Source: Octopus sinensis
Taxonomy: Eukaryota
Assembly (NCBI RefSeq): GCF_006345805.1
Contig: NW_021832916.1
Span: forward strand, 1-29,948
DNA: 29,948 nucleotides
Reading direction: 5' to 3'
In this document: positions 39 to 28,955 of the stretch, piece after piece
Numbering within the stretch: position 1 is the first letter of the stretch
How the letters are laid out: every line of letters begins with the position of its first letter
The notes under the pieces: generated by a model
What the model was told of the DNA's origin: nothing
Seen by the model: the letters and a program-made list of their open reading frames with translations, nothing else
Databases searched by the model: none
Program-made: the position numbers and the translations under genes

Positions 39-1509
39 ATAAAAGGCAAAGTCGACTCCGGCGGAATTTGAACTCAGAAGGTAACAGCAGACGGAATACC
101 TATTTCTTTACTACCCACAAGGAGCTAAACACAGAGGGGACAATTGAAGAGAGACAAACGGATTAAGTGGATTACATCGACCCCAGTGCGTAACTGGTAC
201 TTAATTTATCGACCCCGAAAGTATAAAAGGCAAAGTCGAACTCGGCAGAATTGGAACTCAGAACGTAACAGCAGACGGAATACCTATTTCTTTCTACCCA
301 CAAGGGGCTAAACGAAGAGAGGACAAACAAGGACAGACAAATGGATTAAGTAGATTATATCGAAACCAGTGCGTAACTGGTACTTATTCAATCGACTCCG
401 AAAGAATAAAAGGCAATGTCGACCTCGGTGTATTTTTGAACTCAGAACGTAACAGCAGGCGGAATACCTATTTCTTTCTACCCACAAGGGGCTAAACGAA
501 GAGAGGACAAACAAGGACAGACAAATGGATTAAGTAGATTATATCGAAACCAGTGCGTAACTGGTACTTATTCAATCGACTCCGAAAGAATAAAAGGCAA
601 TGTCGACCTCGGTGTATTTTTGAACTCAGAACGTAACAGCAGGCGGAATACCTATTTCTTTCTACCCACAAGGGGCTAAACGAAGAGAGGACAAATAAAG
701 ATAGACAAACGGATTAAGTAGATTATATCGAAACCAGTGCGTAACTGGTACTTATTCAATCGACTCCGAAAGAATAAAAGGCAATGTCGACCTCGGTGTA
801 TTTTTGAACTCAGAACGTAACAGCAGGCGGAATACCTATTTCTTTACTACCCACAAGGGGCTAAACACAGAGAGGATAAACAAGGACAGACAGACGGATT
901 AAGTAGATTATATCGACGCCAGTGCGTAACTGGTACTTATTCAATCGACTCCGAAAGAATAAAAGGCAATGTCGACCTCGGTGTATTTTTGAACTCAGAA
1001 CGTAACAGCAGGCGGAATACCTATTTCTTTACTACCCACAAGGGGCTAAACACAGAGAGGATAAACAAGGACAGACAAACGGATTAAGTAGATTATATCG
1101 AAACCAGTGCGTAACTGGTACTTATTCAATCGACTCCGAAAGAATAAAAGGCAATGTCGACCTCGGTGTATTTTTGAACTCAGAACGTAACAGCAGGCGG
1201 AATACCTATTTCTTTACTACCCACAAGGGGCTAAACACAGAGAGGATAAACAAGGACAGACAAACGGATTAAGTAGATTATATCGAAACCAGTGCGTAAC
1301 TGGTACTTATTCAATCGACTCCGAAAGAATAAAAGGCAATGTCGACCTCGGTGTATTTTTGAACTCAGAACGTAACAGCAGGCGGAATACCTATTTCTTT
1401 ACTACCCACAAGGGGCTAAACACAGAGAGGATAAACAAGGACAGACAAACGGATTAAGTCGATTATATCGACGCCAGTGCGTAACTGGTACTTAATTTAT
1501 CGACTCCCA
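39..1509 (-). repeat. Tandem array 1 of a ~184-185 bp satellite derived from a tRNA-type SINE (family B), 8 units
   Basis: Marker GAACTCAGAA recurs at 70, 254, 438, 622, 806, 991, 1176 and 1361. The minus strand reads ...GTTACGTTCTGAGTTCAAA (B-box region)...GTCGAC..TGCCTTT...AAGTACCAGTTACGCACTGG...TTGTGGGTAGTAAAGAAATA, homologous to the dispersed SINE copies at 9984-10147 and 23551-23752. Confidence 0.93.
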
Positions 1510-2200
1510 AATGGTGAAAAGCTATGGTGGTATATGTGGTCGAAGTGGAAGCAATGATAATACTGATGATAATGTTTGTAGTCGTAGTGGTGGTGTTAGT
1601 GGTAGGATATTTGTGGTGGTGGTGGTGGTGGTGGTGGTGATGTATTTAATTGCTTCAAATGATTCCTGTTTTGAAAGGGTTTTTTTTTTTTAATTATATG
1701 GCCGTGTTATCTTTTTTTACCCTCGCCAAGGAGGTTATATTTCTGCTGATGTTTGTTTGAGAAATTGGCTATTTTTGGGGCATTCGTGTATATGGGTGGA
1801 AATGGGTTGCTTGGCGGAGGTCTGCGCTCTTTGGGTGCCTTTCTAGTTCATTCTAATTTATTCTTTTATTTATTCGATATTCTCTCGCTTCGAACCAAGC
1901 AGTTTCGTCTGCGCACATGCATCAACATGTGAACACCGTCTGCTGCACATTTAGACGCATTCTTTTATTGTATTAGGTTCGCCCGGCTTGAAACAAACTT
2001 TCCCACACTATGAATAGTTGATTGTGTTGAATATATTTTCTTTGAAAAGCCGGAAAGCTTTGCGAGAGAATAAGACATGAGGCTATTCTTTCATTTAACA
2101 GGGGTGTGCGTACATACTTGCATGCGCACCAATATATAAGCGTATACATAGATATACACACTTACACATACACTTACACACACACGGAGATGTCACTCAG
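1510..2200. repeat. Spacer of the higher-order repeat, copy 1 (near-identical to 4770-5438; its end also matches 1-38)
   Basis: ATGGTGAAAAGCTATGGTGG...ACACATACACTT(A/G)CACACAC is present twice, with few substitutions and different (GGT)n and poly-T lengths. Confidence 0.92.
1717..1848 (+). mobile_element. Short non-autonomous Helentron/HINE-like element
   Basis: Subterminal inverted repeat CCCTCGCCAAG (1720-1730) / CTTGGCGGAGG (1810-1820), 3' hairpin GCGCTC-TTT-GGGTGC, and terminus CTAGTT in a T-rich site. This is the HINE/DINE-1-type architecture. Confidence 0.7.
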
Positions 2201-4769
2201 ATAAAAGGCAAAGTCGACTCCGGCGGAATTTGAACTCAGAAGGTAACAGCAGACGGAATACCTATTTCTTTACTACCCACAAGGAGCTAAACACAGAGGG
2301 GACAATTGAAGACAGACAAACGGATTAAGTGGATTACATCGACCCCAGTGCGTAACTGGTACTTAATTTATCGACCCCGAAATTATAAAAGGCAAAGTCG
2401 AACTCGGCAGAATTGGAACTCAGAACGTAACAGCAGACGGAATACCTATTTCTTTCTACCCACAAGGGGCTAAACGAAGAGAGGACAAATAAAGATAGAC
2501 AAACGGATTAAGTAGATTATATCGAAACCAGTGCGTAACTGGTACTTATTCAATCGACTCCGAAAGAATAAAAGGCAATGTCGACCTCGGTGTATTTTTG
2601 AACTCAGAACGTAACAGCAGGCGGAATACCTATTTCTTTCTACCCACAAGGGGCTAAACGAAGAGAGGACAAATAAGATAGACAAACGGATTAAGTAGAT
2701 TATATCGAAACCAGTGCGTAACTGGTACTTATTCAATCGACTCCGAAAGATAAAAGGCAATGTCGACCTCGGTGTTTTTTGAACTCAGAACGTAACAGCA
2801 GGCGGAATACCTATTTCTTTCTACCCACAAGGGGCTAAACGAAGAGAGGACAAATAAAGATAGACAAACGGATTAAGTAGATTATATCGAAACCAGTGCG
2901 TAACTGGTACTTATTCAATCGACTCCGAAAGAATAAAAGGCAATGTCGACCTCGGTGTATTTTTGAACTCAGAACGTAACAGCAGGCGGATACCTATTTC
3001 TTTACTACCCACAAGGGGCTAACACAGAGAGGATAAACAAGGACAGACAAACGGATTAAGTAGATTATATCGACGCCAGTGCGTAACTGGTACTTATTCA
3101 ATCGACTCCGAAAGAATAAAAGGCAATGTCGACCTCGGTGTATTTTTGAACTCAGAACGTAACAGCAGGCGGAATACCTATTTCTTTACTACCCACAAGG
3201 GGCTAAACACAGAGAGGATAAACAAGGACAGACAAACGGATTAAGTAGATTATATCGAAACCAGTGCGTAACTGGTACTTATTCAATCGACTCCGAAAGA
3301 TAAAAGGCAATGTCGACCTCGGTGTATTTTTGAACTCAGAACGTAACAGCAGGCGGAATACCTATTTCTTTACTACCACAAGGGGCTAAACACAGAGAGG
3401 ATAAACAAGGACAGACAACGGATTAAGTAGATTATATCGAAACCAGTGCGTAACTGGTACTTATTCAATCGACTCCGAAAGAATAAAAGGCAATGTCGAC
3501 CTCGGTGTATTTTTGAACTCAGAACGTAACAGCAGGCGGAATACCTACTTCTTTACTACCCACAAGGGGCTAAACACAGAGAGGATAACAAGGACAGACA
3601 ACGGATTAAGTAGATTATATCGAAACCAGTGCGTAACTGGTACTTATTCAACGACTCCGAAAGAATAAAAGGCAATGTCGACCTCGGTGTATTTTTGAAC
3701 TCAGAACGTAACAGCAGGCGGAATACCTATTTCTTTACTACCCACAAGGGGCTAAACACAGAGAGGATAAACAAGGACAGACAAACGGATTAAGTAGATT
3801 ATATCGAAACCAGTGCGTAACTGGTACTTATTCAATCGACTCCGAAAGATAAAAGGCAATGTCGACCTCGGTGTATTTTTGAACTCAGAACGTAACAGCA
3901 GGCGGAATACCTATTTCTTACTACCCACAAGGGGCTAAACACAGAGAGGATAAACAAGGACAGACAAACGGATTAAGTAGATTATATCGAAACCAGTGCG
4001 TAACTGGTACTTATTCAAACGACTCCGAAAGAATAAAAGGCAATGTCGGCCTGGGTGTATTTTTGAACTCAGAACGTAACAGCAGGCGGAATACCTATTT
4101 CTTTACTACCCACAAGGGGCTAAACACAGAGAGGATAAACAAGGACAGACAAACGGATTAAGTAGATTATATCGAAACCAGTGCGTAACTGGTACTTATT
4201 CAATCGACTCCGAAAGAATAAAAGGCAATGTCGACCTCGGTGTATTTTTGAACTCAGAACGTAACAGCAGGCGGAATACCTATTTCTTTACTACCCACAA
4301 GGGGCTAAACACAGAGAGGATAAACAAGGACAGACAAACGGATTAAGTAGATTATATCGAAACCAGTGCGTAACTGGTACTTAATTTATCGACACCGAAA
4401 GAATAAAAGGCAATGTCGACCTCGGTGTATTTTTGAACTCAGAACGTAACAGCAGGCGGAATACCTATTTCTTTACTACCCACAAGGGGCTAAACACAGA
4501 GAGGATAAACAAGGACAGACAAACGGATTAAGTCGATTATATCGACGCCAGTGCGTAACTGGTACTTAATTTATCGACTCCGAAAGAATAAAAGGCAATG
4601 TCGACCTCGGTGTATTTTTGAACTCAGAACGTAACAGCAGGCGGAATACCTATTTCTTTACTACCCACAAGGGGCTAAACACAGAGAGGATAAACAAGGA
4701 CAGACAAACGGATTAAGTCGATTATATCGACACCAGTGCGTAACTGGTACTTAATTTATCGACCCCGAA
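2201..4769 (-). repeat. Tandem array 2 of the same SINE-derived satellite, 14 units
   Basis: Marker GAACTCAGAA at about 2232, 2416, 2600, 2781, 2965, 3148, 3332, 3515, 3697, 3881, 4065, 4250, 4435 and 4620. Same order of unit variants as array 1. Confidence 0.93.
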
Positions 4770-5438
4770 ATGGTGAAAAGCTATGGTGGTGTATGTGGTC
4801 GAAGTGGAAGCAATGATAATGCTGATGATAATGTTTGTAGTCGTAGTGGTGGTGTTAGTGGTAGGATATTTGTGGTGGTGGTGGTGGTGGTGGTGATGTA
4901 TTTAATTGCTTCAAATGATTCCTGTTTTGAAAGGGTTTTTTTTTTTAATTATATGGCCGTGTTATCTTTTTTTACCCTCGCCAAGGAGGTTATATTTCTG
5001 CTGATGTTTGTTTGAGAAATTGGCTGATTTTGGGGCATTCGTGTATATGGGTGGAAATGGGTTGCTTGGCGGAGGTCTGCGCTCTTTGGGTGCCTTTCTA
5101 GTTCATTCTAATTTATTCTTTTATTTATTCGATATTCTCTCGCTTCGAACCAAGCAGTTTCGTCTGCGCACATGCATCAACATGTGAACACCGTCTGCTG
5201 CATATTTAGACGCATTCTTTTATTGTATTAGGTTCGCCCGGCTTGAAACAAACTTTCCCACACTATGAATAGTTGATTGTGTTGAATATATTTTCTTTGA
5301 AAAGCCGGAAAGCTTTACGGGAGAATAAGACATGAGGCTATTCTTTCATTTAACAGGGGTGTGCGTACATACATGCATGCGCACCAATATATAAGCGTAT
5401 ACATAGATATACACACTTACACATACACTTGCACACAC
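4770..5438. repeat. Spacer of the higher-order repeat, copy 2
   Basis: Direct repeat of 1510-~2185. Confidence 0.92.
4972..5103 (+). mobile_element. Second copy of the Helentron/HINE-like element (duplicated with the spacer)
   Basis: Same sequence as 1717-1848. Confidence 0.7.
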
Positions 5439-8383: not shown

Positions 8384-8803
8384 TTATACAGTCGTCACAA
8401 TTGTCCAGAGCCTCTTTGAACAGGGGAGTGGTGGGCAGTTGAATGACATCTTGTGGTAGCTTGTTCCACGGGGCTGCGATACGGATGGAGAATGTAGCCT
8501 TTTGCCTGTTGAGTCGAAAGTGTCGGGGATAGAGTTTCCAATCGTGCTCACGAAAACCCTATCCGGCGCAGGGGTGAAAAACTCCGCAAATGGTAGATTT
8601 ATATTCCCGTTGAAGATGTTGAAAGCTGGGATGAGTTCTCCCCGCATTCTCCGTTGTTCGAGTGAAGGTAATGCCAGCCGTTGTAGACGTTCCTCATCCG
8701 TAAGCTTAGACAGGCCCACGATCATTCCGTTGGCTAAGTGTTGAACCCGTTCTAGGTGCTGAATGTCTTTCTGGAGATATGGGTTTGAGGCCTGGATGCA
8801 TAG
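8384..8803 (-). pseudogene. CR1-clade LINE ORF2 C-terminal fragment (frameshifted)
   Basis: Translates CIQASNPYLQKDIQHLERVQ...EERLQRLALPSLEQRRMRGELI.. then, after a frameshift, FSIRIAAPWNKLPQDVIQLPTTPLFKEALD. These are canonical CR1 post-RT motifs. Confidence 0.9.
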
Positions 8804-18636: not shown

Positions 18637-18850
18637 TCATATCGGAAATGAATAAGAGAAAATTAATTTGGTGGATTATTACACATGCATAGTACAACAG
18701 GTCACATATCGACAAAAGGAAACTTGAAATTTCGAAGGAAATTATGATGTGCGCCAGTGTGTGTGTGTGTGTGTGTGTGTGTGTTCATTATTTTTTCTTT
18801 CCAAATTAAATTCCAATATAATCGCATTTTACACACACTGTAACGGATTT

Positions 18851-19250
18851 CTCTTTTACTCATTTACTTGTTTCAGTCATTAGACTGTGGCCATGCTGGA
18901 GCACCGCCTTTAGTCGAGCAACTCGATCCCGGGACTTATTCTTTTGTAAGCCCAGTACTTATTCTATCGGTGTCTTTTGCCGAACCGCTAAGTAACGGGG
19001 ACATAAACACACCAGCATCGGTTGTCAAGCATTGCTAGGGGGACAAACACAGACACACAAACAGGCATATATATATATACATATATACGACGGGTTTCTT
19101 TCAGTTTCCGACTACCAAATCCACTCACAAGACTTTGGCCGGCCCGAGGCTATAGTAGAAGACACTTACCCAAGGTGGCACGCAGTGGGACTGAACCTGG
19201 AACCATGTGGTTGGTAAGCAAGCTACTTACCACACAGCCACTCTTGCACC
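18851..19250 (-). mobile_element. SINE family A, full length
   Basis: A/B boxes, body and tail as above. Confidence 0.92.
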
Positions 19251-19389
19251 TGTAGAAAATTACGTTAGAAAATAACCCATTTTGTTAAAGTTCTGAGCAA
19301 ACACAGACAATTCGTGTGAATTTTACGAAACTCATCTTTCTGCCCACAGACAAATTTGTTTCGCTACAAATTCCGATATAATCAGAATG

Positions 19390-19642
19390 ATCACCATCTG
19401 AAGCGTATTTACAGAAACTTTAATCAAATAATGTCTGTTTGTCGGGGAAACAAATGAGGAAACAAATTCGGTGCCTCGCACACATCTGTGAGAATGGCTG
19501 CCTTCTCAACACGGATCTTCTGCTAGAAATCGCTGTTCCAGTCGGAAAACTTCTCGGCTGTCCTCTTCCGCATCTGTGCGTGTCGGTGGGACATTACCGT
19601 CAAATCCAAGCACCATCTGAGTCGTCTCTTTTCCTCACTAAC

Positions 19643-19686
<44 letters not shown>

Positions 19687-20000
19687 AATTCTTTCTTTCT
19701 TTCTCTCTGAGTGTTATGTTGCAGCCCTACCCAACCATCAGAATCCTCCTCACCTGACCTAAGACCGACAATGACAGAGAAAGTAGCTGTCCATCTGCAG
19801 CTGACATGTACCCTAAGCCTCGACTCCTTGAAGCATCAACGGCTTAAAATGTGTAAGAAGCCGGTTCCCATTGTTAACAGCATGTAGGTCGACGGCAGAA
19901 ATATCTGGTCGGTTGTGAAAGATTGAGACAGATGCACAGGTATCTCGACGAAATTCAGCTGCGGGGAAGTGGCATCTGTCTTTACGATCAACCATGTGTT
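19390..20000. promoter_or_regulatory. Candidate bHLH E-box cluster (putative enhancer)
   Basis: Seven CATCTG/CAGATG sites plus CAGCTG x2, CACCTG, CAAATG and CATGTG in ~610 bp of otherwise unique sequence. Confidence 0.4.
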
Positions 20001-20072
20001 TCATTTTTCTTGAATCTTTTATTTAAATAAGAAATTTCAGTGTTTTTCCCTTTTGTACAGACATATTACGTT

Positions 20073-20250
20073 TATTAAGTTGTCCAAAAATGTCTGACAA
20101 ATAGAATAATTTGTATAACGAATCTTCATTGTGGAACAAATCTGAATTTAATCCCAGCAGGAATATTATGTCTTCATTTTCTTAAAGTTCTAACAATTGT
20201 TTCAAAGCTTCTCCATTTCAGATTCATCACACTTCTGTTCTTCATAAAAC
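20073..20250 (-). mobile_element. Possible highly decayed mariner 3' end
   Basis: TIR-like TATTAAGTTGTCCAAAAATGTC resembles the end at 17283. Minus-strand ESEMEKL* weakly resembles mariner GIEKL. Confidence 0.3.
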
Positions 20251-20530
20251 TTTGCTGAAATTGGATGCCATTTCGTCAAAGAAGAGGAAACTATTGAGAA
20301 CAAGAATTTTAATAACGTTAATAATTTTAACCACTTCTTGTAATATTGCAAAAGTATCTGGAAATATTTTGTGAGAAACAAACACCTCTCAGTGAAGATT
20401 GTAATAAGTGACAGAAATAGGGTTTTTATCTTACAGTTAACTTGAACCCCAATTTCCCTCCTTATCATAGCTTCTGCACCTTTATTACATACTACATTAA
20501 ATTTATACCATCCAAGGCCTAGTTCTATCT

Positions 20531-20929
20531 CTCTTTACTCTTTTACTTGTTTCAGTCATTTGACTGCGGCCATGCTGGAGCACCGTCTTTAATCGAGCAA
20601 CTCGACCCCGGGACTTATTCTTCGTAAGCCCAGTACTTATTCTATCGGTCTCTTTTGCCCCCCCGCTAAGTGACGGGGACGTAAACACACCAGCATCTGT
20701 TGTCAAGCAATGCTAGGGGACAAACACAGACACACACACGCACATACACATATATATACATATATACGACGGGCTTCTTTCAGTTTCCGTCTACCAAATC
20801 CCCTCACAAGGCATTGGACGGCCCGGGGTTATAGCAGAAGACACTTGCCCGAGATGCCACGCAGTGGGACTGAACCAGGAACCATGTGGTTGGTAAGCAA
20901 GCTACTTACCACACAGCCACTCCTGTGCC
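20531..20929 (-). mobile_element. SINE family A, full length
   Basis: A/B boxes, body and tail. Confidence 0.92.
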
Positions 20930-20937
20930 TATATATA

Positions 20938-21079
20938 TGTTATTTTATTTTACTTGTTTCAGTCATTTGACAGTGGCCATGCTGGAGCACCGCCTTTAGT
21001 CGAGCAAATCGATCAGGCCGTCAAGAAGGCTATCCATATGCTAGAAATGGCAGCCAAAGCTAACGAAAGTTCGATAAAA

Positions 21080-21150
<71 letters not shown>

Positions 21151-21190
21151 GCTAGAAATGGCAGCCAAAGCTAACGAAAGTTCGATAAAA

Positions 21191-21239
<49 letters not shown>

Positions 21240-21332
21240 CTCTCTCTCTCTCTTCTTCATCATCATCATCATGATATATATGAATATATATGTCTGAGTC
21301 ACTTTTCATTGACGAAAATCTGAGCTGCCTCT
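20938..21332. repeat. Composite module copy 1: SINE-A tail fragment + TCAGGCCGTCAAGAAGG...GATAAAATAAG + (CT)n + CATCAT...GAGCTGCCTCTG
   Basis: Repeated at 22212-22378 (truncated) and 23099-23378. 21148-21195 is an internal re-duplication. Confidence 0.85.
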
Positions 21333-21954
21333 GAGAAAATACGAATTAGATCGTCATATATATATACGTATGTATGTGTGTGTGTATGCATGCATTTGTG
21401 TATACGCCTGTGTATGCATGCATGCATGTATGTATGTATGTATGTATGTATGTATACATGTATGTGTGTGTATATACACTTGTTTTGGCAGAAGAGTAAG
21501 GTATTTTAATTACATTTTAATTACATTTGCAGCCACAGCCAATTTACGCTTCAATTAACATCCTGTTGTCCAGTTAAGTTGCTGCGAAGGGCGACAACAC
21601 ACCCCTCATCGGTATTAAAAAATAGGTATTTCGTCTAAAGCTAAGCTACACACACACACACACACAGATATATATATATATGTGTGGTGTGTGTGTGTGA
21701 GTCTGTATATATGTATGTATGTGTGTATGTATGCATGTATCTATCTATCTAACTATCTATCAATCTATCCATATATATATATATATATATGCGGACAATA
21801 CACGCAGACAAATACACACGCACACATACACACACACACACACACAAATATATATATGTTTATATATTTCAAAATAGAATATTACCCTTTAACAGGTAAT
21901 TTTAACTTGCTAAAAATAGCAGCCATATATGTATATATATATTCTCTTTCTCTT

Positions 21955-22378
21955 TCTCTTTTACTTGTTTCAGTCATTTTGACTGCGGCCATGCTGGAGC
22001 ACCGCCTTTAATCGATTAACTCGACCCCGGGACTTATTCTTTGTAAGCCCAGTACTTATTCTATCGGTCTCTTTTTTGCCGAACCGCTAAGTGACGGGGA
22101 CGTAAACACAGCAGCATCTGTTGTCAAGCAATGCTAGGGGGACAAACACAGACACACACACGCACATACACATATATATACATATATACGACGGGCTTCT
22201 TTCAGTTTCCGTTATTTTATTTTACTTGTTTCAGTCATTTGACAGTGGCCATGCTGGAGCACCGCCTTTAGTCGAGCAAATCGATCAGGCAGTCAAGAAG
22301 GCTATCCATATGCTAGAAATGGCAGCCAAAACTAACGAAAATTCGATAAAATAAGTCTCTCTCTCTCTCTTCTTCTTC
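21955..22378 (-). mobile_element. Headless SINE-A fused to composite module copy 2
   Basis: The SINE breaks at CAGTTTCCG|TTATTTTATTTTACTTG. The same junction recurs at about 22841 and 23098. Confidence 0.85.
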
Positions 22379-22795
22379 CGGCTGGCTAATTTTTGCCTGT
22401 TGTTCACCCCCTAATATTGTCTGGGCCCCCTTGGGGTGCGACGGTCACCTAGAGCGTGACTATCCAGCCGGGGCCGATCCGTTTGCTTGCGGTCCGAGCA
22501 CCTCCTACGACTTTCGGGTGGGACCACGTCGCTGTTTTTACCCGGTACGTGGACGATACCGCGCGCTTAGTTTCGTGCTTTCGATTTCACGCACCGTGTG
22601 GCGGCGGAGACGCGGGCGACCGGCGTGCGACGGTCACTAGAGCGTGACTATCCAGCGTGGGCCGATCCGCAAGCTTACGGGTCTGATTTTTTTTCATTAC
22701 GGGTCAGTCCACGTATGTGTATTTTCCCGGTGCATATCGTAAGGTGAAGGATGAATTTACCGGATGTTTACGTTTTGATATACGACAACGCGGCG
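22379..22795. other. CpG-rich island containing two diverged ~189-bp units, origin unknown
   Basis: GTGCGACGGTCAC(C)TAGAGCGTGACTATCCAGC..GGGCCGATCCG at 22436 and 22625. Similarity continues through CGGGT....CCACGT...TGT.TTT.CCCGGT. Confidence 0.7.
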
Positions 22796-23378
22796 TATAC
22801 ACATATATACATATATACGACGGGCTTCTTTCAGTTTCCGTTATTTTATTTTACTTGTTTCAGTCATTTGACAGTGGCCATGCTGTAGCACCGCCTTTAG
22901 TCGAGCAAATCAACCCCGGGACTTATTCTTCGTTAGCCCAGTACTTATTCTATCGGTCTCTTTTGTCGACCCGCTAATTGACGGGGACGTAAACACACCA
23001 GCATCTGTTGTCAAGGAATGCTAGGGGGACAAACACAGACACACACACGCACATACACATATATATACATATATACGACGGGCTTCTTTCAGTTTCCGTT
23101 ATTTTATTTTACTTGTTTCAGTCATTTGACAGTGGCCATGCTGGAGCACCGCCTTTAGTCGAGCAAATCGATCAGGCCGTCAAGAAGGCTATCCATATGC
23201 TAGAAATGGCAGCCAAAGCTAACGAAAGTTCGATAAAATAAGTCTCTCTCTCTCTATCTATCTCTCTCTCTCTCTCTATCTATCTCTCTCTCTCTCTCTC
23301 TTCTTCATCATCATCATGATATATATGAATATATATGTCTGAGTCGCTTTTCTTTGACGAAAATCTGAGCTGCCTCTG
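22796..23378 (-). mobile_element. Tandem headless SINE-A pieces plus composite module copy 3
   Basis: Near-identical to parts of 21955-22378 and 20938-21332. Confidence 0.85.
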
Positions 23379-23391
23379 TTTTATAATTTAG

Positions 23392-23545
23392 AGTTGAGGA
23401 ATTATGTATGATATTTGAATTGGACGGGTAGATGTCTACACTTTATTGTTGAGAGGACATCTGAAGAAGGCTGGAGAATTCCTCAGCCGAAACGTTGTAG
23501 TAACAACTAACAAGATGAGGACACCTGTCCGTCGATTGTAATTAT
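23392..23545 (+). mobile_element. Penelope-like element terminal-repeat remnant, partly inverted
   Basis: Contains a minimal hammerhead motif. 23421-23450 is an imperfect inverted copy of 23502-23535. Confidence 0.65.
23457..23500 (+). ncRNA. Minimal hammerhead ribozyme motif (Penelope type, probably decayed)
   Basis: CTGAAGA (23461-23467)-A-GGCTG/CAGCC stem II-GAAA-CGTT with palindromic AACGTT. Stem I is imperfect. Confidence 0.6.
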
Positions 23546-23550
23546 TCTTA

Positions 23551-23752
23551 TCTACTCTAGTCACAAAGCCCGAAATTTTGGGGTAGGGCCCAATTGATTA
23601 GATCGACCCCACTATGCAACGGGTACTTAATGTTTCAAACCCGAAAGGATGAAAGGTAAAGTCGAAATCGGCGGAATTTTGAACTCATAACGTAAAAACA
23701 GAACGCTAAGCATTTTGCCCTGCGTGCAAACGTTTCTGCCAACTCGGCGCCT
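23551..23752 (-). mobile_element. SINE family B, full-length diverged copy with probable TSD
   Basis: Head AGGCGCCGAGTTGGCAGAAACG..GAGTTCAAAATTCCGCCG. Flanked by GTCGATTGTAATTA / GTCAATTGTAAATA. Confidence 0.85.
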
Positions 23753-24650
23753 TGTCAATTGTAAATATTGCAATAATTTGACATGTCAAACTGAAGGAAA
23801 TTCGTGTGTTTATGGTGGAAAGAGGGAAACCAAAAATAACGTCTCATGTGCAATTCCATAGCGGGAGCTCAACGTTATTCCTGACACGGTGTATAATACG
23901 GTCAATAATGCATTAACTAACTCGACCCAAATCGGATTTTCTGAGGCAAATGAGTCGGACGGAAAGCCTAGAATAGAACTTATAACCTCCCTCTCAAACC
24001 CTTATCTGATATCGAACCGCTTAAGTCCATCCTTTTTTCACTAATTTAACTTGGACATAAACTAATCCACTTTCTACCACTCTCACCTTTAATACCCTCA
24101 GTGGTCTTATGATCTTGAAATCTATTTTCTCCATACTGCAAATATTCTCTGTCTAAACATCCCTAACTCCCCTTCCTATTAAATATAGCCCTCTATAAAA
24201 TCAATCAGTCTTTAACCAATATCATGACAACATTTTAAATGCAAAACCTTTAATATAAATTTCTTCCCCCGGAGAGGTGATGTTATCCAACAATGGTCCC
24301 TGATATCTGTCATATATCAGGACCACACAAGATCCCTGAAACGGCCGTAGAACATTTAAACTCTACCTATACTATTTGTGATACTGTTTATCTGAAAATT
24401 GGACTATTTCTTCTTAATATCCACACGTTTTACCTTTTTAATTTCCATTCAATGTATCTTCATATGTAAATGTAGATAAATATCTAGCTTGCTTGTCGTT
24501 TCTTTACGTATCTAAAGTCTCATGTTCTAATCTCTTCAGCACTTCGAAGTGTTTCTATATACAGTGAACACCTGTATCTAAAACAGAAAATAAAATATAT
24601 ATATGAATATGTATATATATACATATAAACACATATACATACGCACGTCG

Positions 24651-24682
<32 letters not shown>

Positions 24683-24709
24683 TATATTACATGTATTTAT
24701 TTATATTAA

Positions 24710-25040
24710 GGGCATTACTATATAGAAATGCCTCGCGCTAAGAGGGACTCTTGAAGTCAAAACTACTATAATAACCACATTGTATCAAACGCAAGGATAC
24801 AAGAGTTCGTCTGGTACGTTGATTTTTGTTAAATTTTATGTCTTGACAAAGGCTGCGCTGATGAGTGAAAAGTGCATTTTGTGCACTAATTACGGAATCA
24901 TATGATGTTCAGCTACGTCTGTTTCTGGAGGCTCGTTTTGAGAGTTGCATTCCCTCGCGTTTTGTACAATGTGGGCATTATAGTAGTTTATACTTCAAGA
25001 GACCCTCCTAGCGTGAGGCATTTATGTATAAGTAATGCCC
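24710..25040. mobile_element. 331-bp MITE with ~90-bp TIRs and TTAA TSD (Kolobok-like)
   Basis: TTAA|GGGCATTACT...AGTAATGCCC|TTAA. The arms match through AAATGCCTC.CGCTA.GAGGG.CTCTTGAAGT..AAACTACTATAAT..CCACATTGTA. RR termini with a TTAA TSD fit Kolobok rather than piggyBac (CCY termini). Confidence 0.85.
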
Positions 25041-25544
25041 TTAATATACGTAAATATATTCATAGGGAATAATTAATAAGTTATCCCTTCTGAGGTTTTT
25101 CACGATAACTACTTGATAAATCCTCGTAAAAATTTTATCCTATATTTCAATTATATATATTTATTAGTAGCCCCAAACTTACTTTGTTATATATATACAC
25201 ACACACACACACACACTTATGTATATATATATATATATATATATTACATATATGTATATTTCTATGTATATGTGAGCGTGTGTATGTATATGTGTATGTG
25301 TTTCAGTTTATCCACTAGGACCGCTTGGGAACAGGTTCCGGTTTTTTATGTCCCAGTAATTTGGCCGATCGGTATCGGTAACTTGTTAAATTCCTTACAA
25401 CCACTTGAAACTTTTCACATTTTTACCACATCATTTTCAAAGCATTTACGTCTGATGTAGAATTGCCTGCCGCTGACGATAATTGCATTCATGTTTTTCT
25501 TTTTTCTGGTAAGTAATAAAAAAAAAATCAAAAGTATAAAGTTG

Positions 25545-25690
25545 CGTAACTGTAGGCAAATCAGCGGAAAGGATCGCGAGAATACGCAGCAGGCTTAACA
25601 ACAAATACTGGGGCCGATTTGTGCGACTAAAACACTTTAAGGCAGTGCCCCAGCATAGGCGCAGCCCAATGGATGACAAACGTAAGGAAT
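25545..25690 (+). mobile_element. Old, diverged 3' half of a SINE-A-related element
   Basis: TACTGGGGCCGATTTGTGCGACTAAA...AAGGCAGTGCCCCAGCATAGGCGCAG aligns with the family A 3' region. Confidence 0.65.
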
Positions 25691-25821
25691 TGTTTACAGC
25701 TATGGTTTAAATTCTACGCCATAAATTAGAATTGTCGGATCTCATCGAAGACAGCGAACGGGAATTGAAGCTCTATGGTTTGTGTTCCTGAAATTTTAAA
25801 GGATGCAACAATAGAAAATGA

Positions 25822-25860
25822 TCTATCTATCGATCAATCAATCGATCTTTTATCTATATC

Positions 25861-25916
<56 letters not shown>

Positions 25917-25947
25917 CCTATATATCTACATATCTATCTATCTATCT
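25822..25947. repeat. (TCTA)n microsatellite, left part
   Basis: Directly visible. Confidence 0.95.
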
Positions 25948-27164
25948 GGAACGAGATAACGAGTAGGGTGGTCACTCTCGCCCAGCAATGGGCCGAGAGG
26001 AAAGTGTCCCTAAAAGGTCGGGCGGAGGTGGCGAAAGCCTACATCGCGTCCATCATCTACTACCGCCTGACCGTCGTACCTTGTCCCGACCCTACCATCA
26101 CCAAACTAGAACGCATCCTCTTCCGCTTCTTGTGGAAAGGATGCGTCCCGATGGTCAGGCGATCCATTTGCTGCCAACACCCGTTAAAAGAAGGGCTGGG
26201 CATGCCGTGGTTGATGATGCGCAGACACGCGCTGAGACTGCGACATCTCCGGCTCTATGTAGACGACGGTGAACAGGTGTGGTCACCGTTTGTGAGGCAC
26301 GCATTCCCGCAACTCGTCTCCATGACCGAACAACAGTCGTGGGGCAAAAGGAGGCCGAGGAAGGGCGAATGGCACCGCGAGTGTCGCGTTGCTCTCAAGC
26401 AACTCTGCCGTCCCAGGTCGACCTTGAGTGACTTCAACACAACCAAAGAATTCTATAGGGGATTAGTGGAGGGGAGGTACGACGACGATCTCGTGGCAAA
26501 CCTGGGCGTCGACGAGGAATACCTGACCCGCCTGTTTCAAACGACTTTCGGCCCGGAAGAGCTATTTTTATCATCCTTGTGGCTATGGCGAAAGAATGTA
26601 TCTGGTGGACGCGCCCGAAAGGATTGGAGACAAACACTTTCCTCTCTGGTCAATCTCTCATCAACTTCTTCAAGTATCACATGAAGAGGAAAGTGAGAGT
26701 AGAGAGGCAAATTTTGTCTAGCGAATGTTTTAAAAAAAGATGGGTGAATGTAGCAAGATGGCACGTATGATTGACGAAGCCACCTTGACTATGATTCTAT
26801 GAACCGTAAAAATTAATACAGAGTGTTGCTTATTTGCAAAAAAAAAATAAAAGAAAGAAATATAACATGTGACTTCATTGACCGAGGTTACCATGGTCTT
26901 TTCCGTAGGCTTTTCTTTACACTTCATATTGACATTTCTGTGATTACGATCCCTATTGATCAACTTTTTTTCCTCCCCCCTTTAATTTTATTTTTTTCCC
27001 TCTCCCCCCTTTTTTAAAAAAATCCTCCCCTTTTTTTGTCCTCTTTCTTTCCTTTTACGATCCCTTTTGATCGAAACCCAACACCCTTTTTTTTACCCCC
27101 AAAAGAAAAGCTCTACCCTGTAATTTGTTCTATCTGTGTGCAGCCCTGTGTGGCTAATAAAGAA
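25948..27164 (+). mobile_element. 5'-truncated, internally deleted Tx1/L1-clade LINE with 20-bp TSD
   Basis: ORF2 motifs W..RKVSLKGRAEVAKAYIASIIYY...P...LERILFRFLWKG...VRR......EGLGMP, then a frameshifted AMAKECIWWTR C-terminus, a pyrimidine-rich 3' UTR and end AATAAAGAA. Flanked by ACATATCTATCTATCTATCT at 25928-25947 and 27165-27184. Confidence 0.9.
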
Positions 27165-27351
27165 ACATATCTATCTATCTATCTTTCTATGTCCATCTAT
27201 CTCTATCTATCCATCTATCTATCTATCTATGTATCTATTTATCTATCTATCTATCAATCTGTCTATCTATCTATGTCTATATATCTCTATCTATCTATCT
27301 ATCTATCTATCACTGTCTATCAATGACTATCTATCTCTATCTTTCCATCTT

Positions 27352-27405
<54 letters not shown>

Positions 27406-27500
27406 AATCTATCTATCAAACTATCATGTGTCTGTCTAGCTATCTCTCTATCAATCAATGTCTGTATCTTTATCTTTCTATCTCTCTATCTATTACGTCT
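27165..27500. repeat. (TCTA)n microsatellite, right part
   Basis: Directly visible; degenerate distally. Confidence 0.95.
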
Positions 27501-28122
27501 CTCCATATATCGATATACATATATATATACATACACACATATATACATTCATTTACATTTACTTATTTTCACACACACAAACACGCACGCAGACACACAC
27601 TTTCACACACACATATACATAATATAAAGGGAGAGGAAAATCAAATCATGGAACGCAACTTACAAGCATTGTACTACAATCCAGGCTCTGGTAAACCACA
27701 TCGAATGGTCCGGTAAAACGGGAAAATCTTTATGGTAAACAATCATTGTCTTTCACTTAGTTCCAAAATTCCGAGTTCACTATTTCGGGTTTTATCCTGT
27801 GTAAAAGACATTGAAATAAGAATTAAATGTTACACATGAAGTAACTTACTTTTTAGCATATTTTATATACAATGCAATTTAGTTATTTTAAACCTGTGAA
27901 CGACACGCCTTTCTGCTGCATGTATATCATAAGCATTAGCATCAGGTTACATCCTGCTGGTTGAAAACTGTACCACCAGTATGCAGTAATTATAACTTTA
28001 GACTCAGATACTGATACCGGTGGAATGTAAAATATTAATATTATCATTTGATATTATCATTAGTATTCACTTCAGTTTTATATTAAAGAAACTTATTGGC
28101 ATGGTTATGTATCTCATTGCAT

Positions 28123-28131
28123 CACACACAA

Positions 28132-28162
<31 letters not shown>

Positions 28163-28217
28163 CACAGACACACACACACAGACACACACACACACACGCA
28201 CACAGACACACACACAG
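28123..28217. repeat. (CA)n microsatellite
   Basis: Directly visible. Confidence 0.95.
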
Positions 28218-28430
28218 ATACTGGAAGACAATTAGTTTTTTTTCCAATTTCCTTTTTTATCTTTCACTTTTTGCAGAAGGCATCAAGAATACTGGAGACT
28301 TTCTCAGATACAAATACGTTAAACAGTTTAGAGGCCCCTGCATGTCTTCCTCTCCCTCTTCCCCTCACTCCTATGAAAATAGGACATCAAACTATTGAAT
28401 GTTTGGGTACAGATGAGCTCTCTCTCTCTC

Positions 28431-28838
28431 TTTTTTACTCTTTTACTTGTTTCAGTGATTTGAATGTGGCCGTGCTGGAGCACCGCCTTTTGTCGAGTAA
28501 ATCGACCCAAGGACTTATTCATGTAAGCCTAGTACTTCTTCTATCGGTCTCTTTTGCCGAACCGCTAACTTACAGGGACATAAACACACCAGCATCGGTT
28601 GTCAAGCGATGTTGGGGGAAGCGGGACAAACACTGACACACAAACACACACATAGAAATATATATATGCATATATACAACGGGCTTCTTTCAGTTTCCGT
28701 CTACTAAATCCACTCACAAGTCTTTAGTCGGCCGAGGCTATAGTAGAAGACGCTCGCCCAGAGTGCCACGCAGTGGGACTGAACCCGGAACAATGTGGTT
28801 GGTAAGCAAGCTACTTACCACACAGCCACTCCCGCGCC
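28431..28838 (-). mobile_element. SINE family A, full length
   Basis: A/B boxes, body and tail. Confidence 0.92.
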
Positions 28839-28915
28839 TATAGAAGTTTGGAATATAATTGTGTCAATTATTATAATCGTTATATATCTCAGTGCATAAC
28901 ACACACACAGGCAGA

Positions 28916-28955
<40 letters not shown>

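Follow-up and report, generated by a model that had tools for sequence, protein, structure and literature searches.

The window, by which we mean the whole analysed stretch of 29,948 bp of Octopus sinensis contig NW_021832916.1, carries a 5'-truncated LINE of the L1/Tx1 group (25947..27167, plus strand), recognised by BLAST to the full-length copies L031 and L034. This element, a member of what we call family A, retains the end of ORF2 and the 3' UTR, has an internal deletion of ~280 bp near position 26555, and is flanked on its 5' side (25821..25947, plus strand) and on its 3' side (27168..27493, plus strand) by a (TATC)n microsatellite, the target of its family. Two arrays of head-less SINE units lie on the minus strand: the first (39..1511) holds eight units of 184-185 bp, each tail being joined to head position 49, and the second (2201..4770) comprises 14 units and lies within a duplicated copy of the block containing the first. 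Another SINE (23560..23752, minus strand) stands alone and is more diverged; its head and body are of the same kind but its tail is a different one, and it is an older relative. A run of SINEs is broken at 22370-22800 by GC-rich sequence containing an internal repeat, a possible MITE with 78 bp inverted arms (85% complementary, 156 bp apart) occupies 24719-25030, and the minus strand of 8384-8803 reads like what we take to be the end of a CR1-type ORF2, although a Pfam search of this fragment gave no match.

An earlier note on this DNA had pointed out that the 3' end of the LINE matches the tail of the satellite unit, and this match is real. Compared without gaps with the array units on the minus strand, positions 27124-27165 are identical at 33 of 42 bases in 10 units (e.g. 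839-880), with 11 additional units scoring 27-31, whereas the best of 1,000 dinucleotide shuffles compared with the whole window reached 28. The note was also right that both stretches are extreme 3' termini: LINE copies at independent loci stop two bases past the matched stretch (30/30 loci), and dispersed SINE copies stop at the same distance and continue into a target-site duplication. The family A terminus (27124..27167, plus strand) is composed of a pyrimidine-rich block, a hairpin, AATAAA and the terminal bases, and the hairpin is predicted to fold as previously drawn, with a 4-bp stem and a 6-base loop (-4.5 kcal/mol). One SINE tail, at 837..880 on the minus strand, has a 4-bp stem, a 5-base loop and terminal bases, followed by the fixed junction. 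As the matched stretch is short and T- and A-rich, chance, or a SINE fragment inserted at the LINE end (the note's own alternative), might be suspected; we regard either as scarcely credible in view of the shuffles, of the identical end in thousands of family A copies with subfamily variants (6,731 exact tails in the genome), and of the same architecture in all other families sampled.

Each array unit corresponds to a SINE of 232 bp, found dispersed in the genome, without the first 48 bases. The complete element is short, non-coding, dispersed and abundant, with 61,832 exact 29-base tails in the 2.72 Gb of genome searched, and solitary copies are flanked by target-site duplications, 14-18 bp long in 9 of 17 copies and at least 10 bp long in 11 of 17. 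Its head contains what we take, by eye, to be Pol III A- and B-box-like motifs, and it is on these that a presumed tRNA origin rests; ARAGORN detected no tRNA in the window and Rfam gave no match on SINE locus L049. The element may resemble the MetaSINE superfamily with its Meta central domain. Exact tails run directly into the SINE's own head from position 49 in 29,178 of the 61,832 cases (47%), and the same joint was found for 39 of 76 tails in 60 loci not selected for that feature. A second, rarer SINE-in-SINE joint lies upstream of this one, close to the first promoter box of the head (L040, L047, L066, L208, L244, L260). The two SINE families could not be told apart by head diagnostics.

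Relatives of the window LINE were collected by a zf-RVT search and a protein search, yielding about a dozen families, with tails read in 30+40 of the 150 matches from each search and in a few long loci. Their assignment to the L1 group follows from an AP endonuclease, an RT and a C-terminal zinc-binding domain in ORF2, found by Pfam in L031 (family A; EN, RT and zf-RVT) and L152 (family B), and for family G from the identity of its ORF2 to that of B. The closest match among solved structures is human L1 ORF2p (E 2e-68, compared with 2e-24 for R2), and the closest named protein relative comes from an argonaut. An ORF1 with a CCHC zinc knuckle is a feature of the Tx1 clade; zf-CCHC was detected in four of five ORF1s scanned, three of them above the cut-off, in a set drawn from families other than A and G. 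Family-specific targets (multicopy RNA genes, microsatellites, other repeats) are a further mark of the Tx1 clade and are present as well: (TATC)n for A, the SINE head for G and U1 for one further family. We use Tx1 as a label for elements that would work like that clade, a usage supported by the target specificity and the CCHC ORF1s.

The U1 case is a LINE whose end directly abuts the 5' end of a U1 snRNA gene or copy (L117:2228-2391; Rfam RF00003), and U1 was the sole named Rfam family among 20 flanks. Family F (L290, L302, L305), as judged by eye, is attached at a single site to the head of the other SINE that is abundant in this genome, and a copy of the array-type SINE with a 17-bp duplication is located at about the same site in L214. 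Several LINE families are arranged head-to-tail with a spacing of ~3.6-5.7 kb (G000 C3:72.50-72.53 Mb, C9:76.60-76.62 Mb and C6:112.82-112.84 Mb), which suggests insertion at their own 5' ends.

Nearly all LINE tails that we read close with a pyrimidine-rich block, then a hairpin, then AATAAA. A hairpin immediately before AATAAA is predicted in 13 of 14 LINE ends with differing stem sequences, and an alignment of eight tails contained no two-sided compensatory change. When aligned to the last 62 bases of the SINE, 13 of 14 L1/Tx1-group representatives gave z scores of 3.8-8.1, compared with -1.0 to 2.1 for one CR1-like end and two other SINEs; the control for other LINE clades, at or below 2.1, is that single CR1-like end with a guessed terminus. 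The SINE and these LINEs share 3' terminal sequence, as in stringent SINE/LINE pairs. We conclude that the SINE tail is homologous to, and derived from, that of an L1/Tx1-group LINE, and that it is common to the whole L1/Tx1-group radiation instead of being a private link to the window LINE.

Identity to the last 28 bases of the SINE amounts to 26-28 in B, 23-24 in E, 22-23 in G and 19-22 in A, and SINE copy L211 and B copy L137 are identical over this length. Over the last 44 bases the scores overlap (31-37 in A, 33-37 in B, 31 in G), so that A is not excluded by tail identity. The SINE type of hairpin, with a loop of five bases, is also present in B, E, G and H, and these four form one clade without A (SH-aLRT 99) in a quick RT tree of unnamed relatives, from which family C and an R4-like copy were left out as their open RT frames were too short. 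In the RT region, protein identity to B is 77% for G and 58.5% for A.

The earlier note, taken literally, would have family A mobilise the SINE, and A is indeed abundant and, with 34-37 of the last 44 bases matching in its better copies, as similar to the SINE as B. We nevertheless find this very hard to uphold, given that A inserts in (TATC)n, a sequence that follows none of 47 SINE tails, that its loop has six bases, that its last two bases are unlike those of the SINE, and that it falls outside the clade bearing the SINE-type hairpin. Distinct 3' flanks of family A consist of (TATC)n in 21 of 25 cases and apparent 5' joints in 12 of 21, the latter being a floor value as some of the 21 are alignment breaks. 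Most close matches to the window LINE (21/29) are duplicates of its own insertion, with the same deletion and flank, and L036 is a repeat of window positions 18820-28932 at ~97%. The microsatellite-targeting family A of the window is likely no more than a cousin that carries the ancestral tail. The proposal that a Tx1-like LINE mobilised the SINE holds as far as the L1/Tx1-group origin of the tail is concerned, and is not supported for the window family as the partner, the target, terminal dinucleotide and hairpin loop all being different. The 5' UTR of full-length family A copy L031 (L031:3093-3122) contains a perfect 12-bp hairpin, the loop and inner stem of which equal the SINE tail hairpin; no such hairpin turned up in the upstream region of B, E and G, each represented by a single copy.

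The two halves of the SINE tail are matched best by different families: the upstream half by the old families C and F, with ~29 bases identical in C copy L169, and the downstream half by B and H. This would be expected if the partner were an extinct or unsampled family possessing the entire 60-base tail, with several members of the clade cross-mobilising the SINE, and the partial coverage of the LINE matches (30+40 of 150 for zf-RVT, 70/150 for the protein search) leaves room for such a family. C and F, however, have other hairpins and other targets, and the proposal overlaps with the explanation that we prefer below if such a family was ancestral to G; as a separate explanation we consider it decidedly improbable.

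The insertion sites point to family G. The first copy of family G was encountered inside a SINE head at locus L040, and a search with the 3' UTR of this copy returned 383 first-look candidates, of which 40 were scored and 30 loci fetched. In all 30 fetched loci G is joined to one identical base of the SINE head, and this is the base at which 47% of SINE tails join another unit. All 20 longer stretches retain the upstream half of the SINE head, with a duplication of 11-17 bp, the first base of which (G or C) agrees on both sides. In 19 of the 20 the LINE is ~5.3 kb long, with an open ORF2 of 1,134 aa in six; the one truncated copy has a 14-bp duplication. In full-length copies (L379-L398) the upstream duplicate is often without the private variants of the host, as if the LINE RNA brought its own copy of the landing site. 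Contigs of four runs cover the G 3' end and one X1 contig spans the G-SINE joint, an indication of presence only and not of expression. Non-SINE tails at the junction were also sought with two exclusion patterns, which gave 12 and 178 matches (of the latter, 29 of the 30 read were SINE bodies) and recovered no LINE; the first missed G because it demanded the SINE's last base.

SINE tails are followed by TA at positions 3-4 past the end in 41 of 47 cases (20/24 at non-self sites), as are 25 of 25 G tails, compared with 3/21 for B, 1/7 for E, 0/25 for A and 0/14 for C. This NNTA preference separates the SINE from B (Fisher p 4e-6) and from A (4e-10), in a count that includes (TA)n sites and assumes that every family ends two bases past the common motif. 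The other landing sites of the SINE fit G, and not A or B. Duplication length does not discriminate between families, since B and E also have ~13-19 bp. In age, sampled G copies, which were chosen as best hits, differ by 0-1.4% substitutions and SINE bodies by 3-5%, so that today's G did not make most SINE copies.

Family B had been our first reading of the partner, and was lowered by this target test. One can still propose that B (or H) was the source of both tail and enzyme, G merely exploiting an abundant SINE as a safe target. The perfect 28-base match between L211 and L137, the intact B copies (L152) with similar duplications and 2-4% pairwise divergence, and a B-like variant upstream of the hairpin in some of the window's SINE units all speak for this. 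Flanks without the NNTA preference of the SINE (3/21), the absence of any joint to the SINE head among 25 B loci and a total of just 25 exact B tails speak against it, and we consider B an unlikely partner.

The same junction base recurs in the chains of SINE units. The earlier note had suggested that a site-specific LINE might account for the fixed tandem junction; a LINE that inserts there does exist in family G, but most junctions are not plain target-site duplications made by today's G enzyme. The first base of the junction is G in 29,178 cases and C in 310, while 16 of 42 SINE heads have C at this site and 13 of 71 chains combine a C head with a G junction. Units do not have private variants in common at the site more often than at other positions (shared: 5; unshared: 29 and 33). 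A plain duplication model for all chain junctions was rejected on account of this imbalance and the unshared variants. Most junctions were likely carried on RNA, since they nearly always begin with G, irrespective of the base in the head. Some direct self-insertion does occur, as the rare C junctions are mostly found with C heads (9/15, against 14/71 elsewhere). The first unit of a chain is also less diverged than the last (3.6% vs 4.75%; 27 vs 16 of 47 chains, p 0.008), and many chains end in the older SINE family, copies of which, like that at window positions 23560..23752, are often found as terminators. The lower divergence of first units, these older-family ends and the pairing of C junctions with C heads count for direct insertion. 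Whole-chain duplications (11/26) are compatible with both models, correlations between head and body divergence were not significant, and for chains that end in the older family no valid contrast in divergence could be drawn, as that family has another consensus.

The arrays of the window consist of a whole number of units, with ends within the body, no head and no duplication, a circular permutation as expected from an inserted circular intermediate. They likely grew at the DNA level, since they are head-less, have both their ends at almost one and the same point of the body and lie within a duplicated block.

Taken together, we think it probable that the SINE, which shares its tail with the L1/Tx1-group clade, has been copied by an ORF2 protein from the B/E/G/H subclade, the G lineage being its most likely source, with A a likely cousin. 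What can be observed directly is that the tails are homologous, that targets are specific to families, that G occupies the SINE head, that SINEs are joined to each other at that very base and that the duplications have similar lengths. The ORF2 protein would recognise the hairpin and AATAAA end of the SINE RNA, nick a loose NNTA site, the best version of which would lie in the SINE head between both promoter boxes, and use the nick to prime reverse transcription. A SINE inserted in a SINE in this way would lose the guest's first 48 bases, giving rise to chains with one head and many bodies. Most junctions would be RNA-borne, either through read-through chains re-copied whole or through an RNA end running a few bases into the junction, and the long arrays of the window would reflect later growth by DNA-level duplication. 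Against this explanation, no sampled family combines the best tail with the SINE target, the G tail being no better than that of A, and B, with its closer 28-base match, landing at other sites. C is present at 8 of 25 G insertions, yet at only 310 of ~29,500 SINE junctions.

One of the closest precedents is the crocodilian SINEU, for which mobilisation by Tx1 was inferred because SINE and LINE have a common target within another repeat and are of concurrent age (Kojima 2015, PMC4494074). The present SINE is similar in that Tx1 mobilisation is inferred via a shared target within a repeat. The target of SINEU/Tx1-Mar is a Mariner transposon and its heads are derived from snRNA, whereas in the present case the SINE is hit in its own head; in the accessible text of that paper the case is argued from target, age and 5' ends and not from the 3' tail, which the present SINE does share with its LINEs. 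SINEs with L1-clade tails account for three of 58 pairs in one survey, in plants and an alga (maize ZmSINE2/3, Chlamydomonas SINEX-3_CR; Ohshima 2013, PMC3747384), and such stringent pairs, like ours, share ~45-80 terminal bases with a hairpin. The partners reported for mollusc SINEs in the accessible portions of three papers are CR1, CR1-Zenon, L2 and Nimb (PMC11481361, PMC4824008, PMC4758252), L1-Tx1 being listed for cephalopods without a SINE link in the part of a further study open to us (PMC8967140); the literature searched contained no L1-clade tail on a mollusc SINE. Target-specific Tx1 families include Kibi and Koshi (microsatellites), Keno (U2) and Tx1 in Tx1D (PMC4494074). The families described here likewise target (TATC)n (A), U1 snRNA (L117) and non-autonomous repeats (F, G), but the G target, unlike any of theirs as given in that text, is a SINE head.

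Insertion at one base of other copies is shared with Alu, where Alu-in-Alu insertion has a single-nucleotide hotspot (Levy et al., PMC2836564). In the jerboa Dip SINE, multimers make up as many as half of the copies and satellites arise from SINE parts, but those multimers are full-length, whereas the present chains have one head and many bodies (PMC10702118). As far as the accessible text of these two papers goes, neither describes a partner LINE with an equally strict target (PMC2836564, PMC10702118). The openly accessible literature listings searched contained no LINE whose target is its own passenger SINE.

We offer, as a tentative possibility that may well prove wrong, that the relationship is a closed loop. 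A LINE lineage would target a single base, located between the promoter boxes, in the same SINE by which it is parasitised, and the SINE would borrow the enzyme and at the same time make landing sites for it. SINE-in-SINE insertion would keep one promoter, to be read through, re-copied and so to seed satellites, and the drifted loop of the LINE hairpin would represent an escape from the parasite. Intact young LINEs, distinct targets and graded tail differences occur here in one system, so that RNA recognition and target choice of an L1/Tx1-group ORF2 protein can be tested separately. The partnership may explain the spread of one major SINE in this genome, as well as the conversion of dispersed repeats into tandem arrays.
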